9,836 nt of DNA from a virus (IMGVR_UViG_2541047798_000001); one strand, 5' to 3'; positions 1 to 7,063 are shown, numbered from the stretch's first letter. Notes: generated from the letters alone by a model not told the origin. A program made the numbers and translations.

Positions 1-1239
1 ATGAGCAGGGCAATTCATAGACTTAGCGACACTCTTTTACGAAAATTAAGCGGATCACCAACCACAAAAAACACCTTTTTTAATGATGGTGGCAACCTTA
101 GCGTAAGGCATTCAACCAATGGCCTGTTAACCTGGTATTTCACTTACAGGGCCGGAACAGGCAGGAAGGTAGCCCCTGAACGTCTGAGGCTGGGAAATTA
201 TCCAGATTTGAGCCTGAAAGCAGCCAGGGAAAAAGCGTCGCAGTGTCGCGCCTGGCTTGCTGAGGGTAAAAATCCACGCCATGAGCTTAATCACACCGTA
301 CAGGAAGCGTTATCACCTGTTACGGTTAAGGAAGCGCTCACTTACTGGCTTGAATCGTACGCGAAGGAAAAGCGCACAGATTACGAATCTCTGAAAAGCC
401 GGATCAATACACACATAATCAGCCATATTGGTGCTATGCCGCTGGAAAAATGCGAGCTACGCCACTGGCTGACCTGTTTTGATCAGCTTGCTAAGCGTAA
501 TCCGGTATCAGCAGGATTTTTGTTACAGGTATGCAAGCAGGCGCTTAAGTACTGCCGCAAACGACGCTACGCAATTACCAACGTTCTAGATGATATGGTT
601 GTAGGTGATGTTGGGAAAAAAGCAGAAATAAGCGAGCGCATACTAACAAACAAGGAGCTTGGGGAATTACTCCGCGCCCTGGATGAAAAAATTTACCCAC
701 CGTACTACAGCGCCCTGATTCGCCTCCTGATTGTCTTCGGATGTCGTACCACTGAGCTAAGACGCTCTGAGGTCCAGGAATGGGATTTTAAAGAAATGCT
801 CTGGACCGTGCCGAAAGAACATAGCAAAACGAAGGTAGCAATATTCAGGCCAATACCGGAAGCGATCTTGCCGTTCGTAACGAAGCTGGTGGAGCAGAAC
901 AGGCACACGGGATTATTGCTCGGAGAACTGAAAGGGCAATCATCCGTATCAGAGTACGGAAGAACGGCACACAGACGTATTAATCAAGCCCCCTGGACGT
1001 TGCACGACATCCGGCACACGTTTACAACGATGCTGAACGATTTAGGCGTGGATCCTCATGTAGTGGAGCAGCTAACCGCGCACCAGTTGCCAGGAATGCA
1101 ACGAGTCTATAATCACTCCCGTTATCTTGATGCAAAACGTGACGCTCTTAATCTATGGGTTGAGCGTCTCGAGCTTCTCCAGAACAATGATGAAAAAATC
1201 GTTGTTATGACCCCGCGAATTTACTCCCAAAATTCTTGA
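1..1239 (+). CDS. int: Tyrosine recombinase / integrase, P4 (CP4-57) type
   Basis: 412-aa ORF. N-terminal arm-binding (DUF4102-like) region (GLLTWYFTYRAGTGRKVAPERLRLGNYPDLSLKAAREKA); C-terminal catalytic domain with HxxR box (LHDIRHTFTT) and catalytic Tyr context (VYNHSRY). Confidence 0.9.
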   Translation: MSRAIHRLSDTLLRKLSGSPTTKNTFFNDGGNLSVRHSTNGLLTWYFTYRAGTGRKVAPERLRLGNYPDLSLKAAREKASQCRAWLAEGKNPRHELNHTVQEALSPVTVKEALTYWLESYAKEKRTDYESLKSRINTHIISHIGAMPLEKCELRHWLTCFDQLAKRNPVSAGFLLQVCKQALKYCRKRRYAITNVLDDMVVGDVGKKAEISERILTNKELGELLRALDEKIYPPYYSALIRLLIVFGCRTTELRRSEVQEWDFKEMLWTVPKEHSKTKVAIFRPIPEAILPFVTKLVEQNRHTGLLLGELKGQSSVSEYGRTAHRRINQAPWTLHDIRHTFTTMLNDLGVDPHVVEQLTAHQLPGMQRVYNHSRYLDAKRDALNLWVERLELLQNNDEKIVVMTPRIYSQNS

Positions 1240-1648: not shown

Positions 1649-1858
1649 ATGCGCGAAATAAATGAAGATCGTGTAATCCGCGAAAAAGAATGCAGAGAGC
1701 TAACAGGCGTTTGCCGCACAACTCGTTACGAGATGGAAAAGCAGGGCCGCTTCCCCTCACGTATCAGTCTCGGCGGTCGTTCTGTTGGCTGGGTTAAGTC
1801 TGAGGTTATGGAATGGGTTAAAAGCAGAAATCGTATTAATTCAGGTAAGGCAGCGTAG
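1649..1858 (+). CDS. alpA: AlpA-family phage regulatory protein (excisionase-like HTH)
   Basis: 69 aa; SD AGGA about 6 nt upstream of the ATG; signature GGRSVGWVKSEVMEWV and preceding TGVCRTTRYEMEKQGRFP match the Phage_AlpA/Vis family; positioned directly after int as in P4-like and PICI elements. Confidence 0.85.
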   Translation: MREINEDRVIREKECRELTGVCRTTRYEMEKQGRFPSRISLGGRSVGWVKSEVMEWVKSRNRINSGKAA

Positions 1859-1884
1859 GGGGAACATATGACACATAAAACAAA

Positions 1885-1904
1885 GGCGACCTGTGGCGGT
1901 CGCC
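1885..1904 (-). terminator. GC-rich hairpin GGCGACC-tgtggc-GGTCGCC between convergent alpA and the minus-strand regulator; T-rich tract follows on the minus strand
   Basis: 7-bp perfect stem; on the minus strand it is followed by TTTGTTTTATGTGT; about 90 bp downstream of the minus-strand gene stop. Confidence 0.4.
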
Positions 1905-1992
1905 AATGGGAAAACACTAAACATAAGCCAGAACATCATAGCGATTTGCTGTCTGGTGGGCAATGTGCTCAGTGTGCTGGCTTGCTGGTGGG

Positions 1993-2172
1993 CTATTCCT
2001 GCTCTTTGGCCTTGCGGCGCTGGCGGCGTTTGATTTCGCCGCGCATGGCTGCGTTTATAAACTGTCCCGTGCTTTCGCCTTCTTCTTTCACGTTCTCCAT
2101 GCCTTCAATAATTTCATGGGCAATACGTGCAGTTACAGATTGTGATTTTGCATTCTTTGGACCCGTTGCCAT
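1993..2172 (-). CDS. Small DNA-binding protein, probable ribbon-helix-helix (Arc/CopG-like) repressor
   Basis: 59 aa from the internal ATG of ORF 1993..2211 (MATGPKNAKSQSVTARIAHEIIEGMENVKEEGESTGQFINAAMRGEIKRRQRRKAKEQE). SD GAGGGG lies 6 nt upstream of that ATG. N-terminal beta-strand-like KSQSVTARI followed by two predicted helices. Operator-like repeats lie in its promoter. Confidence 0.45.
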   Translation of the reverse strand: MATGPKNAKSQSVTARIAHEIIEGMENVKEEGESTGQFINAAMRGEIKRRQRRKAKEQE

Positions 2173-2192
2173 GTTTAACCCCTCATGTTTTT

Positions 2193-2275
2193 GGTGTAAG
2201 ACAATATACACGAAAAAAAAATATTTTGAAGGGTTGACGTGTAAGACACCATTATTTTACATTGTGTCTTACACC
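2193..2275. promoter_or_regulatory. Divergent promoter/operator region: three copies of GTGTAAGACA(C) at 2194-2203, 2239-2249 and inverted at 2264-2274
   Basis: Repeats read from sequence. Copies 2 and 3 form an inverted pair separated by 14 AT-rich bp and overlap a candidate TTGACG(2234)-N18-TACATT + strand promoter; copy 1 sits just downstream of a candidate minus-strand -10 (TATATT). Confidence 0.5.
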
Positions 2276-2371
2276 TTATTGATGAAAGGCACAGAAACGA
2301 CGAAACCCCGCACTGTAGGAGCAGTAACGGGGCTTCTAACCACCAACGATAGCAACAGTATCGAGGTAGCT

Positions 2372-2575
2372 ATGAGAAATCATACCACACACCCGAAAGG
2401 GCGGGACTCGCACAACCTGAATAAATACATCTGGCGTTTTATCGCCCTGAGCACGGCACAACCGCGCGTGATTACCATTGAGGCCACCAGCGAACAGGAA
2501 GCACGCCAGCAATCCCCGGCTGGCTGCGTGATGGTATTCGCCGCCCGTATTCGTCAGGGGGTGTGCCATGCCTGA
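2372..2575 (+). CDS. Small protein, possibly Icd-like (host cell division inhibitor family); first gene of the replication operon
   Basis: 67 aa (MRNHTTHPKGRDSHNLNKYIWRFIALSTAQPRVITIEATSEQEARQQSPAGCVMVFAARIRQGVCHA); SD GAGGT 4 nt before the ATG; the pattern IEATSEQEARQQ...VMVFAARIRQG resembles Icd-like proteins of P4-type elements as recalled. The rest of the 235-aa ORF 1868..2575 is treated as spurious. Confidence 0.4.
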   Translation: MRNHTTHPKGRDSHNLNKYIWRFIALSTAQPRVITIEATSEQEARQQSPAGCVMVFAARIRQGVCHA

Positions 2576-2888
2576 CATGACCAATTACCAGTACCTGATT
2601 AATCCGCATTTTAACTGTGAGCATGATATTGCTAAAAAAGTTTATTCCGCTGCGGATGGGGCTACTGACAATATATCAATGGGTATTGCGTCAATTGGTA
2701 GCCTGATGTGGTATGCGTCAGAAAATAAGGAATATGACGAAAAGTCCATGCGCATTGATATGGGTAATATCGGTTTGTTACTGGCAATGCTTGGGCAGTT
2801 TGATATTTCGTTACGGTGCACCATTGAAAATGCCAAAGATGCATTAAATGCTATAAAGAAAGCGAATACTGATTTAAATCGGGGATAA
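2568..2888 (+). CDS. Hypothetical protein (106 aa)
   Basis: ORF overlaps the previous stop by 8 nt (translational coupling); SD GGGGGTG upstream; no recognisable motif. Confidence 0.5.
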   Translation: MPDMTNYQYLINPHFNCEHDIAKKVYSAADGATDNISMGIASIGSLMWYASENKEYDEKSMRIDMGNIGLLLAMLGQFDISLRCTIENAKDALNAIKKANTDLNRG

Positions 2889-2894
2889 ATAATC

Positions 2895-3194
2895 ATGAGA
2901 ACATATTTATCTGGCTTGACTGCCAGCGGTTATGCACACCCCCAAATTATCCCCGGCGCTATTTATCTGGATAAGAACGGTAACAGAGTAACGGTAAAAG
3001 AACTGATGTTTGACCGAGTGTATTTTATCCGTGATGGCTATTCATTTCTTAGTTCGCTGAACGTGGAGATCTTTATTAGCAGATTCAGGCGGGAAATCCC
3101 GCTTTCCAGAAATAACCATGTGTCATGTATGGATGTTGATAAAAAACTACAGGAACTAAAAAACATGATTGCCGCGTGGAGAGAGCAGAAATGA
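2895..3194 (+). CDS. Hypothetical protein (99 aa), possibly DUF4222-like
   Basis: Segment PGAIYLDKNGNRVTVKELMFDRVYFIRDGYS resembles prophage DUF4222 proteins as recalled; stop overlaps the primase ATG (ATGA). Confidence 0.45.
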   Translation: MRTYLSGLTASGYAHPQIIPGAIYLDKNGNRVTVKELMFDRVYFIRDGYSFLSSLNVEIFISRFRREIPLSRNNHVSCMDVDKKLQELKNMIAAWREQK

Positions 3195-5314
3195 AAAAAG
3201 CGCCAAATTTAAAACACCAGCCACGTGACAAAATGACGGAAGTCATCATTTTTGCGGGTAGTGATGCGTGGGCACATGCGAAGCAGTGGCAGGAACAGGA
3301 CGGGCGACTGGCTGGCGACAGCGTGCCTCCTGTCTGGCTTGGAGAGCAACAACTTGCCGAACTGGATAAGCTGCAAATTGTGCCGGAAGGCCGAAAATCA
3401 GTACGCATATTCAGGGCCGGACATCTTGAGCCAGTAATGATCAAGGCGATTGGTCAGAAGCTGGCGGCGGCAGGCGTACAGGATGCAAATTTTTACCCTG
3501 ATGGAATGCACGGTCAGGAGGTGGAGAACTGGCGCGAATATCTAGCCCGTGAGCGGCAGAATCTTTCTGATGGTCTGGTTATTGAGTTTCCGGTAAAGAA
3601 AAAAGATACCGGAAGCCATAGCGATGACGAATTAAAGCCACGCGTTGAAAGTCGCGCCGATGGTGTTTTCTGGGTAACGCCCAAAGTGGATAAGCAGTCA
3701 GGCGAAATTATCCGGCCTGAGACGTGGTTATGTTCTCCGCTTGAACTACTGGGAACGGGGACGATCGGTAAAGAGCATTACCGCGTGATGCGCTGGAAAA
3801 AAACCGCAAACCATGAAGTCATCACAATGGCGATCCCGTGTGGTGGTATCGGCGACCGTGACGGCTGGCGGTTACTTAAAGATCACGGGCTGAACGTGAC
3901 AACCAACGGCAAATACAGGGCAATCCTGGCGGACTGGATGCAGTTAAGCGGAAGCCATGAGGAATGGCAGTTAAGCACAACAACGGGCTGGCATTTTGGC
4001 GCGTACATCATGCCGGACGGTTCGATCATTGGTGAATCTGAAAAACCGATCCTGTTTACCGGAAAAAGCGCCGCGATTAACGGTTATTCCGTGGCGGGCA
4101 CGGCGGATGGCTGGCGCGACAGCGTGGCGCGGCTGGCTGGCGGTAATGCCTCAATGATGCTGGGTGTGGCAACGTCACTGGCAGCGCCTTTAATTGGCCT
4201 TGTGGGTGCTGACGGCTTCGGGGTGCATCTTTTCGAACAGTCATCGGCAGGTAAGACCACCACGCAGAACATCGCATCAAGTTTATGGGGAGAGCCGGAC
4301 GCGCAGCGGCTGACCTGGTACGGCACGGCGTTAGGTATTGCCAATGAGGCCGAGGCCCATAATGACGGGCTTTTACCACTGGATGAGATAGGCCAGGCCG
4401 GAAATGCGCGGGAAGTGTCAACGTCTGCTTATACGCTGTTTAACGGTTCAGGGAAATTGCAGGGGGCGAAGGATGGCGGCAACAGGGAGATCAAACACTG
4501 GCGAACGGTGGCAATCAGCACCGGAGAAATGGACGTTGAGACATTCCTCAAAAGTGAGGGGATAAAAGTTAAGGCGGGGCAGCTTGTCCGACTGCTTAAC
4601 GTTCCGATGGAAAAAGCCACGAAATTTCACGAATACAGCAACGGTAAGGAACATGCTGACGCGTTAAAGGATGCCTGGACAGCAAATCACGGGGCGGCGG
4701 GTCGTGAGTGGGTTAAATGGCTGGCAGGCCACCAGCAGGAGGCAAAGGATACGGTAAGGGAATGCCGCGAACGGTGGCGCAACCTGATACCGGAGAGCTA
4801 CGGCGAGCAGGTCCACCGCGTGGGTGAACGTTTCGCCATACTGGAGGCCGCGCTTGTGCTTTCCGGTCATGTAACTGGCTGGGTCGTGCAGGAATGCCGC
4901 GACGCGATACAGCATAACTTTAATGCCTGGGTGAAGGAGTTCGGCACGGGTAACAGGGAATTTAAACAGATGGTTGAACAGGCTGAGGCGTTTTTGTCGT
5001 CGTTTGGGTTTAGCCGCTACCTTCCGTACCCCAATACAGATGAGCGTGATTTACCGATTAAAGAGCTTGCCGGATACAGAAAAGGGAGCATTCGCAACGA
5101 AGATGACGAGATGCGCTATTACACGTTCCCGCACGTGTTTGAGAGTGAGATAGCGAAGGGATTTAATCCGGCGCATTTTGCGCGTGCCCTGGATGCTGCC
5201 GGAATGCTGGAGAAGGGAAGCGATCGCCGATACAAAAAAAAGGCGCTGGGCAAGATTGGGGGTAAGCAGCATGTTTTTTACGTGCTGATGTTCCAGCCTG
5301 ATGATGAAGATTAA
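3191..5314 (+). CDS. Replication initiation protein: primase/helicase-like P-loop NTPase (DUF927 / P4 alpha-like)
   Basis: 707 aa from the ATG at 3191 (SD GGAGAG; ATGA overlap with the upstream ORF). Deviant Walker A FEQSSAGKTTT and Walker B LLPLDEIG; N-terminal segment EVIIFAGSDAWAHA may be Toprim-like; followed immediately by an iteron array. Confidence 0.7.
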   Translation: MKKAPNLKHQPRDKMTEVIIFAGSDAWAHAKQWQEQDGRLAGDSVPPVWLGEQQLAELDKLQIVPEGRKSVRIFRAGHLEPVMIKAIGQKLAAAGVQDANFYPDGMHGQEVENWREYLARERQNLSDGLVIEFPVKKKDTGSHSDDELKPRVESRADGVFWVTPKVDKQSGEIIRPETWLCSPLELLGTGTIGKEHYRVMRWKKTANHEVITMAIPCGGIGDRDGWRLLKDHGLNVTTNGKYRAILADWMQLSGSHEEWQLSTTTGWHFGAYIMPDGSIIGESEKPILFTGKSAAINGYSVAGTADGWRDSVARLAGGNASMMLGVATSLAAPLIGLVGADGFGVHLFEQSSAGKTTTQNIASSLWGEPDAQRLTWYGTALGIANEAEAHNDGLLPLDEIGQAGNAREVSTSAYTLFNGSGKLQGAKDGGNREIKHWRTVAISTGEMDVETFLKSEGIKVKAGQLVRLLNVPMEKATKFHEYSNGKEHADALKDAWTANHGAAGREWVKWLAGHQQEAKDTVRECRERWRNLIPESYGEQVHRVGERFAILEAALVLSGHVTGWVVQECRDAIQHNFNAWVKEFGTGNREFKQMVEQAEAFLSSFGFSRYLPYPNTDERDLPIKELAGYRKGSIRNEDDEMRYYTFPHVFESEIAKGFNPAHFARALDAAGMLEKGSDRRYKKKALGKIGGKQHVFYVLMFQPDDED

Positions 5315-6353: not shown

Positions 6354-6602
6354 ATGGTACATGACCGCATAGCGGAAGAACTCGAAGCGAAAGGATTTTA
6401 CCGGAGGGCGGCGGCGCGATGGGGTGAAGTCATGATGCTGGTGGAGACAGACAAGGAACGGCATCACATCACGATGCGACGGCTGGAATGTTCCAGGAAG
6501 GCACAGAGGCCACCGGAGCCGCCAACGGAGAACTATGCAGACCTGAGAAATGCAGTAAATCGCACTTACGCAGACATGGGGCTGAGCAAATTAGCAGAGT
6601 AG
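6354..6602 (+). CDS. PerC-family transcriptional regulator-like protein
   Basis: 82 aa from the internal ATG at 6354 (SD GAGGGGG; begins 10 nt after the ssb stop). Motif AEELEAKGFYRRAAARWGEVM matches the PerC/Pch signature as recalled. The upstream part of ORF 6234..6602 overlaps ssb and is rejected. Confidence 0.5.
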   Translation: MVHDRIAEELEAKGFYRRAAARWGEVMMLVETDKERHHITMRRLECSRKAQRPPEPPTENYADLRNAVNRTYADMGLSKLAE

Positions 6603-6856: not shown

Positions 6857-7063
6857 ATGGCTGAAGAGAAAAAAGGCGGTGTTTCGGTGTACATAAGCCC
6901 CGACATCGTGAAGGCGCTCAAGGAACGCCACCAGCAGAACGTAAAAGCAGGCATTGCGGCAGGACTTGATCCGCTGGCGATGGTTGAGCCGTCAACAGGC
7001 TGGCAGGTACGCGCCTATTTACGCGCGGCGCTGGGTATGAATCAGGTTCACGGGGGTGAATAA
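6857..7063 (+). CDS. Hypothetical small protein (68 aa), first gene of the capsid operon
   Basis: SD AGAGGA upstream; stop overlaps the capsid ATG (TAATG). N-terminus (GGVSVYISPDIVKALKERHQQ) is compatible with a ribbon-helix-helix fold, but this is uncertain. Confidence 0.5.
   Translation: MAEEKKGGVSVYISPDIVKALKERHQQNVKAGIAAGLDPLAMVEPSTGWQVRAYLRAALGMNQVHGGE

Follow-up and report, generated by a model that had tools for sequence, protein, structure and literature searches.

Genes at the locus

The DNA stretch IMGVR_UViG_2541047798_000001, of viral origin and 9,836 nucleotides (nt) long, is here called the window, and all coordinates are counted over its whole length. On its plus strand, positions 2372–3194 hold three small open reading frames (ORFs) of 67, 106 and 99 amino acids (aa), which lie ahead of a primase gene. 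A preliminary description had taken them for coupled genes, and this is accurate in position, length and strand as well as in the coupling itself. ORF1 and ORF2 share 8 nt (ATGCCTGA, as read from the sequence), ORF2 ends with TAA at 2886–2888 and is separated by a 6-nt gap from the ATG of ORF3 at 2895—with GGGGA 9 nt before this ATG—and the stop of ORF3 overlaps the primase start in an ATGA at 3191–3194. Taken as a whole rather than part by part, the best explanation, which we consider probable, is that a ~10-kb Escherichia coli phage-inducible chromosomal island (PICI) of P4-like ancestry has the front half of its early (replication) operon in this interval, and that this operon is translation-coupled, polarity-proof and led by an Eta/Kil-like frame. 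The genes concerned are:

1649–1858, plus strand: alpA, an AlpA-family activator/excisionase-like helix-turn-helix gene (Pfam Phage_AlpA, 7.9e-18), in front of the long frame
1868–2575, plus strand: long Eta-like frame (235 codons) that is open from 1859 onwards and has ORF1 as its final 67 codons
2372–2575, plus strand: ORF1, 67 aa, Icd-like or P4 Kil-like short form, with its own Shine–Dalgarno (SD) sequence GAGG at 2363–2366
2568–2888, plus strand: ORF2, 106 aa, a satellite-specific predicted helical-hairpin protein (PHROG 15327)
2895–3194, plus strand: ORF3, 99 aa, DUF4222/RgdR family (PF13973), coupled to the primase gene
3191–5314, plus strand: DUF927 primase/helicase-type replication gene (PF06048, 1.6e-48; PHROG 1139 'DNA primase', 1.7e-190), the last of the chain

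From the alpA stop to the primase gene, successive genes are linked by overlaps of 4–8 nt or gaps of 6–10 nt, and no terminator-like site was found on the plus strand between 1600 and 3400. Read from the DNA, the region shows an unbroken run of coupled reading frames from alpA to the primase gene. Minus-strand ORFs inside 2372–3194 have no Pfam match and are unannotated by PGAP in those relatives whose annotation was examined.

ORF1 and the long frame behind alpA

The Icd-like assignment of the preliminary description is borne out by profile hidden Markov models: ORF1 matches NCBIfam NF033153 (phage_ICD_like) over residues 19–62 with 1.4e-19 and 69.8 bits (cut-off 25), and the C terminus of P4 Eta scores on the same model (7.8e-21, 73.9 bits). 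By sequence, ORF1 is the Kil-sized end of a P4 Eta-like frame and a member of the Icd-like family; that its peptide inhibits division or kills is predicted by analogy. A PHROG label of 'transcriptional repressor' for ORF1 was not adopted, as the P4 immunity factor is an RNA and the P4 'cI' CDS encodes an Ash plus an Icd-like domain. The label likely traces to the obsolete P4 CDS 'cI gene product (AA 1-137)', which is labelled 'transcriptional repressor' in the P4 record and consists of Phage_ASH (4.3e-16) followed by the Icd-like domain, its last 65 residues corresponding to P4 Kil.

The long frame starts with the ATG at 1868, 10 nt past the alpA stop and behind an SD-like AGGGGG. Between the alpA stop and the ORF1 start (513 nt), the window has no in-frame stop, versus 11 and 10 in the other two frames. 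The same stretch measures 636–1111 nt in the islands L001, L004, L014, L015, L016 and L017 and likewise has 0 stops—except for one in L017, just after alpA—versus 14–25 in the other frames. Hence, six of the seven islands (the window and these six) have zero stops, which none of 2000 shuffles per locus reached. In every case with the long frame, a start codon with an SD sequence stands directly behind alpA.

The long frame crosses a small YlcI/YnfO gene, to which it is antisense, as well as a promoter/operator region. As it is out of codon register with the antisense gene and spans noncoding control DNA, its openness is no by-product of that gene. The extension in front of ORF1 has no Pfam or PHROG domain, and the 235-aa frame lacks any Pfam family at E<=1; the sole amino-acid similarity of the extension across islands is the mirror image of the antisense gene. 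This mirror-only conservation, together with the missing domain, argues that openness rather than protein sequence is under selection.

Two side observations concern the form of Icd-like genes. Island L016 (NZ_CP042892.1, 5027–5681) has tandem Icd-like genes of 65 and 154 aa before ORF2 and a third, pseudogenised Icd-like frame after alpA. In metagenome/Logan data, ORF1–ORF2 fusion proteins occur—P0004 (171 aa, representing 36 member sequences) and P0020 (324 aa)—which go back to a slight alteration at the 8-nt overlap.

ORF2 and ORF3

The middle gene, called unrecognised in the preliminary description, indeed has no match in Pfam, NCBIfam, PADLOC or PDB, yet it belongs to a small, satellite-only family without assigned function, PHROG 15327 (5.2e-71, positions 1–106 of 106). 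A profile search of 1.8 billion representatives returned 21 proteins, mostly of ~100 aa, that share the loop motif IGxLMFxAxxNxxY...DM..IG. In all contexts examined, the relatives of ORF2 sit in satellite early operons, after an Icd-like gene and 1–3 genes ahead of a DUF927, AAA_25 or P4-alpha-like replicase. The ratio of nonsynonymous to synonymous substitution (dN/dS) against the diverged copy in island L013 is ~0.2 at a dS of about 1, which indicates purifying selection. The AlphaFold2 model shows two long helices forming a helical hairpin (predicted local distance difference test score, pLDDT, 66), and comparison with PDB by sequence and fold gave nothing below E 0.4. Homology to P4 epsilon, P4 orf106 and ECs_1580 of Sp7 was considered and rejected, with hhalign probabilities below 0.2%.

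ORF3 matches Pfam PF13973 (DUF4222) with 1.4e-16 and 60.2 bits (cut-off 27), in agreement with its earlier assignment to this family. It aligns end-to-end with RgdR (ECs1581) at 29% identity (E 7e-12), both proteins being 99 aa long, and falls into a clade of DUF4222 that is separate and divergent from the RgdR clade. AlphaFold2 predicts a small barrel of the Tudor/SH3-like type with an additional helix (pLDDT 77), a fold class that takes in the C-terminal Tudor domains of helicases. Purifying selection acts here as well, to judge from a dN/dS of ~0.16 against L013; this comparison is pairwise, with a dS of 0.4–1.2. LEE1 is activated and motility repressed by RgdR, which binds DNA nonspecifically (PMC3378721) and is reported to be encoded by all analysed E. 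coli PICIs (PMC6092414). By analogy, ORF3 probably works like RgdR. Genes of the RgdR clade occur in 1394 genomes and are placed before DUF927, primase-family, RepA-helicase or DUF5906 genes; the ATGA-type overlap between DUF4222 gene and replication gene is also found in Sp7 and in all relatives examined.

Among 5426 complete E. coli genomes, ORF1 DNA is present in 1567, ORF2 DNA in 474 and ORF3 DNA in 472. ORF2 and ORF3 occupy 513 and 509 places, adjacent in the same records, and this near 1:1 co-occurrence of ORF2 with the ORF3 clade suggests a functional pair. ORF2 varies with the clade of ORF3 and not with primase type. An analogous pairing of the RgdR clade with ECs_1580 was rejected (153 versus 1394 genomes). 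In deposited phage genomes, ORF1 has one match, a 16.5-kb 'induced prophage', and ORF2 and ORF3 have no homologue. A cross-species locus search with the DUF4222 alignment returned Shigella and E. albertii only; for the same search with ORF2, the alignment was too divergent for pattern-making.

The control region inside the long frame

The part of the long frame that lies upstream of ORF1 holds a divergent control cassette:

1993–2172, minus strand: YlcI/YnfO-family small protein of 59 aa from the ATG at 2172 (NCBIfam YlcI_YnfO_N, 8.8e-18), inside the long frame
1885–1904, minus strand: terminator-like hairpin with a T-run that closes this minus-strand gene (7-bp stem with 6 GC pairs, tail TTTGTTTTAT)
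2193–2275, both directions: divergent control region with three GTGTAAGACA(C) copies at 2193–2203, 2239–2249 and, inverted, 2264–2275
2302–2336, plus strand: leader hairpin CCCCG-ACTG...CAGT-CGGGG, then the C-rich CUUCUAACCACCAAC, shortly before the ORF1 start

The YlcI/YnfO protein is probably a ribbon-helix-helix (RHH) repressor, judged from its sequence. Its alignment with PHROG 949 begins at residue 14, the 59-aa form is annotated by PGAP in L018 and L014, and the Sp7 homologue gives weak matches of the HicB/Arc/RelB/MobA type. Within some 200 bp, the GTGTAAGACA(C) repeats bracket sigma-70-like promoters facing both ways, with candidates on the plus strand at TTGACG 2234–2239 / TACATT 2258–2263 and on the minus strand at 2230–2203; the −35 TTGAC is unchanged in six islands. 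Other islands bear their own GTGT-N5-CAC motif at the equivalent sites, and this motif varies in step with the N-terminal strand of the RHH protein (the residues after the conserved KSQ). Two motif types are GTGTAAGACAC in the window and GTGTATTTCAC in the SCU-172 type.

The closest relative of the whole window is, in fact, this island of E. coli SCU-172 (L018), with 98.5% identity over 96%, which lies as a ~10.5-kb insert between yljB/cspD and clpS. It differs from the window mainly in the RHH/operator cassette (the region of about 1858–2372) and adds a minus-strand gene of 69 aa. A swapped cassette in an otherwise 98.5%-identical island points to recombinational exchange of the control region. 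A sister island is known as a 10.8-kb circular record, which hints at excision alone.

The leader hairpin is conserved in eight islands: 90% of the alignment cells are paired, three pairs show compensatory changes, and its covariation score was reached by 0 of 500 shuffles. On its own, the fold energy is weak (z = −1.77), and no Rfam family matches. Both an RNA element and a DNA palindrome are conceivable. The C-rich segment that follows it includes CUUCUAACCACC. Neither a C4/CI nor an isrK RNA was found by Rfam at E<=1 in the window, and none in L001 or Sp7 either; P4, as positive control, gave 74.9 bits for C4 and 60.8 bits for isrK. In islands L014 (NZ_CP195442.1, 5268–5819) and L012, for their part, the Icd-like gene is preceded by a leader of the P4 type (aggaggctgcc-ATGGCTAC) and a remnant of the Ash family; both also have an RHH gene and carry the ORF2–ORF3 cassette.

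The surrounding island and its relatives

The gene list of the window opens with an integrase:

1–1239, plus strand: integrase

On the 3' side of the primase gene follow, also on the plus strand, genes for a protein that binds single-stranded DNA (SSB), a PerC-family protein, a lambda-E-type capsid protein and a gpD-type decoration protein. The window shows the order that characterises Gram-negative PICIs, with int, alpA, the replication module and the packaging/capsid genes all pointing the same way, within ~10 kb and at a specific att site. The alpA product is 40% identical to ORF88/Vis of P4. With the PerC-family gene at 6354–6602 (1e-35), 3' of the SSB gene, the island has both RgdR-family and PerC/Pch-family regulators, like O-island 51 of O157. 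A lambda E-type major capsid gene (3.8e-49) and a gpD-type decoration gene (1e-17) stand at 7063–8466 within this ~10-kb island.

The cassette of a minus-strand RHH gene and a plus-strand series of Icd-like gene, ORF2, DUF4222 gene and replicase recurs with constant overlaps in otherwise different islands. These differ in their integrases and insertion sites, in three differently annotated replicases and in four late modules: terS plus capsid, a ClpP–capsid fusion, HK97 capsid/protease/portal, and lambda E/D. Distant satellites have the same gene overlaps as well. A lack of conservation in related islands, which the preliminary description had named as the outcome that would count against it, is hence not what is found. 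The PADLOC models gave 0 families for ORF1–3, the RHH protein, the primase and the neighbours tested.

A proposed translation-coupled early operon and its alternatives

In the mechanism that we propose, the first importance of ORF1 would lie in being translated, as P4 eta/kil and P1 icd–ant suggest. A helper phage would induce alpA, and ribosomes would start at the ATG at 1868 on the alpA-initiated transcripts; alternatively, they might start at the ATG at 2372 on transcripts from the internal, operator-controlled promoter. By covering the RNA, these ribosomes would prevent premature (Rho-type) termination and, through coupling, would pass on to ORF2, ORF3 and the primase gene. The Icd/Kil-type peptide would be toxic to the host or block its division, be it as a toxic by-product or as an effector. 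ORF3—a barrel with a basic helix—would be made in a fixed ratio with the replication protein and would most likely be a cofactor of low specificity that associates with DNA or polymerase, in the manner of RgdR at LEE1 and the motility genes. ORF2 stands in the place of P4 epsilon, that is, as the first gene after kil with the same 8-nt overlap, and is most likely a protein-binding modulator acting with ORF3.

A further claim goes beyond this mechanism and is offered tentatively, as we doubt it more than we believe it. The long frame might be kept open purely so that ribosomes escort alpA-initiated transcripts through the antisense RHH gene and its operators—a protein-repressor version of the P4 CI-RNA switch. 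YlcI/YnfO would then be the 'missing' master repressor of Gram-negative PICIs, with interchangeable specificities, and convergent alpA transcription would flip the switch.

Several points weigh against the translation-coupled early operon. A C-over-G composition scan shows no clear Rho-loading site, and as no C4/CI or isrK RNA is detectable, the P4 termination mechanism is not simply transferable. The promoter-like matches do not exceed shuffle expectation (4 versus 3.1). The open stretch of the Icd frame measures just 87–110 codons in Sp7/CP-933C, L011 and L012, and in Sp7 the upstream part sits in a different frame, as ECs_1576. ORF1 has a dN/dS of 0.4–1.0 in its close clade, measured on 8–20 substitutions, and such weak constraint is compatible with a 'translated spacer' and equally with a fast-evolving effector. 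The ORF2 model, of moderate confidence, found no structural neighbour in a fold search. ORF3, besides being just 29% identical to RgdR, has PGA at residues 20–22 instead of the RGD tripeptide from which RgdR takes its name and which has been linked to T3S activation; the position is variable in the family (R/N/H/K/P), and the R20C variant of RgdR still activates (PMC3378721).

The cassette could instead be primarily an abortive-infection or superinfection-exclusion module, in which the operon responds to a phage protein and the cell is then killed or arrested by the Icd-like product with help from ORF2 and ORF3. This is rather unlikely, in our judgement, though it can draw on genetics. In a preprint by Silas et al., transposon suppressors of phage-triggered cell death fell, within a P4 satellite in ECOR15, into the genes for AlpA, the Icd-like protein and the primase and, in ECOR61, into an Icd-like gene with two small neighbours, and death was abolished once the Icd-like gene was removed. 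Overexpressed P4 Kil also kills (PMC10111431). No protein of the cassette, however, matches a PADLOC model, and the Icd-like gene of ECOR61 is a 121-aa form with different neighbours. Moreover, the same genes are needed in the normal satellite cycle, so that death may be a by-product of runaway induction. Screens in which death requires Icd-like, AlpA and primase genes are consistent with the proposed coupled operon, too.

We regard it as unlikely that ORF1 is a stand-alone, 67-aa Icd-type division inhibitor with its own promoter and ribosome-binding site, and that the frame upstream is an untranslated leftover of an ancestral Bro/Ash–Icd fusion. The SD sequence and ATG of ORF1 are kept in five of six aligned islands, the short form is what PGAP annotates in most relatives, the extension is domainless and of antisense-like composition, and Sp7, L011 and L012 miss the long frame. 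A relic would gather stops, yet none occur in 513–1111 nt across diverged islands, versus 10–25 in the other frames, and the stop-free stretch covers inserted antisense genes as well as promoter DNA that is noncoding. Right behind alpA, a start codon with SD sequence also follows every time, and P4 has the identical layout, for which the long form is reported to be translated (PMC10111431).

ORF2 and ORF3 as replication accessory factors—for origin recognition, or for loading or regulating the primase/helicase—rather than host or helper modulators are a further reading to which we assign a low probability. It would fit the position of DUF4222 genes, always directly before and overlapping a replication gene (DUF927, primase family, RepA helicase or DUF5906), and that of the ORF2 relatives, always 1–3 genes before the replicase, as it would fit a fold class that ORF3 shares with helicase C-terminal Tudor domains. 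An enzyme-specific cofactor is, however, unexpected beside four unrelated replicase families; plasmid-expressed RgdR alone, without the primase, acts on LEE1 and motility (PMC3378721); and ORF2 tracks the ORF3 clade instead of the primase type. Lastly, that ORF2 is the antidote to a toxic Icd/Kil-like peptide in a toxin–antitoxin-like pair would suit its place immediately 3' with an 8-nt overlap and the natural fusions P0004 and P0020, but is very improbable given ORF1-type DNA in 1567 genomes versus ORF2 in just 474, unrelated small genes behind close Icd-like genes in Sp7, and one or two other genes in between in distant satellites.

The proposed early operon provides a specific model for the path from helper-induced AlpA expression to the replication genes. 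That the small genes interfere with helper or host, as had been suggested initially, is plausible by analogy with Kil, RgdR and the cell-death screens. About one in four to one in three complete E. coli genomes contain either the cassette or its Icd-like and DUF4222 components, and among its relatives a phenotype is reported for RgdR only. The divergent RgdR clade that is always paired with ORF2 is a natural place to seek new host-regulatory activities, in islands equipped as well with PerC-type regulators of the virulence island LEE. Once ORF1 is read as the Kil portion of a frame like Eta, two misleading labels stand corrected, 'transcriptional repressor' in PHROGs and 'cell division inhibitor' in NCBIfam. 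For the role of master repressor in Gram-negative PICIs, with 'immunity' types that can be exchanged, the YlcI/YnfO gene is a candidate, and it bears on whether these islands have such a repressor at all.

Comparison with known systems

The left operon of P4, vis(alpA)–eta/kil–epsilon–orf151–orf106–alpha, has the same order as the window: an AlpA-type gene, a long frame, small genes and a primase gene. Eta is coupled to the alpA homologue there, its translation prevents termination, and Kil, the truncated form, kills (PMC10111431). Our P4 control shows the kil frame to be open from within vis, with the eta ATG overlapping the vis stop. In both systems, the frame that runs from the alpA/vis stop ends in an Icd-like domain (~65 aa in P4), the next junction is an 8-nt overlap (kil/epsilon and ORF1/ORF2), and an internal promoter—a candidate one in the window—lies within the long frame. 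Unlike in P4, the extension in the window is without Phage_ASH (no Pfam at E<=1) and without C4/CI or isrK/seqA RNA; instead, the window has an antisense RHH-like gene and island-specific operator-like repeats. Furthermore, neither ORF2 nor ORF3 is related to epsilon, orf151 or orf106, the primase is of the DUF927 type and not P4 alpha, and sid, delta and psu genes are absent.

In the P1 immI operon (c4 RNA–icd–ant), a small ORF of the Icd family is likewise translated first and coupled to the following gene. Translation of this small ORF licenses downstream expression in P1. The window differs in having no C4 RNA and in downstream genes other than an antirepressor, and division inhibition is only predicted here.

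RgdR of O-island 51/CP-933C/Sp7 (capsid-forming PICI EcCIEDL933) and ORF3 are both DUF4222 proteins of 99 aa in which SGLTASG, G.IY.D, R.GY and F..F are invariant. Both genes overlap the primase start by ATGA, and the neighbouring primases are near-identical. RgdR is preceded by ECs_1578–1580, whereas ORF3 follows ORF2, and an activity on LEE1 and motility is known for RgdR.

The ECOR61 and ECOR15 loci of the death screens resemble the window in that an N-terminally extended Icd-like gene, small neighbours and a primase gene are jointly required for death; the sizes and neighbours of the genes differ from those in the window, and the likeness is one of description.

Gram-negative PICIs of the EcCICFT073 type and capsid-forming PICIs share with the window the order int–alpA–...–primase–...–capsid, a length of ~10 kb and a PerC-family gene. 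By its lambda E/gpD gene content, the window resembles the capsid-gene-bearing PICIs of Mageeney et al. (PMC10111431). AlpA is the helper-induced activator of Gram-negative PICIs, its overexpression leads to uncontrolled replication, and their master repressor was called 'unclear' (PMC6092414); here the window offers a candidate, the divergent RHH-like gene with its operator-like repeats. The arrangement as such is already known, and this widespread cassette, which has been annotated before, adds a further example of it rather than a novel type of system; the regulation around it is possibly a new variant.

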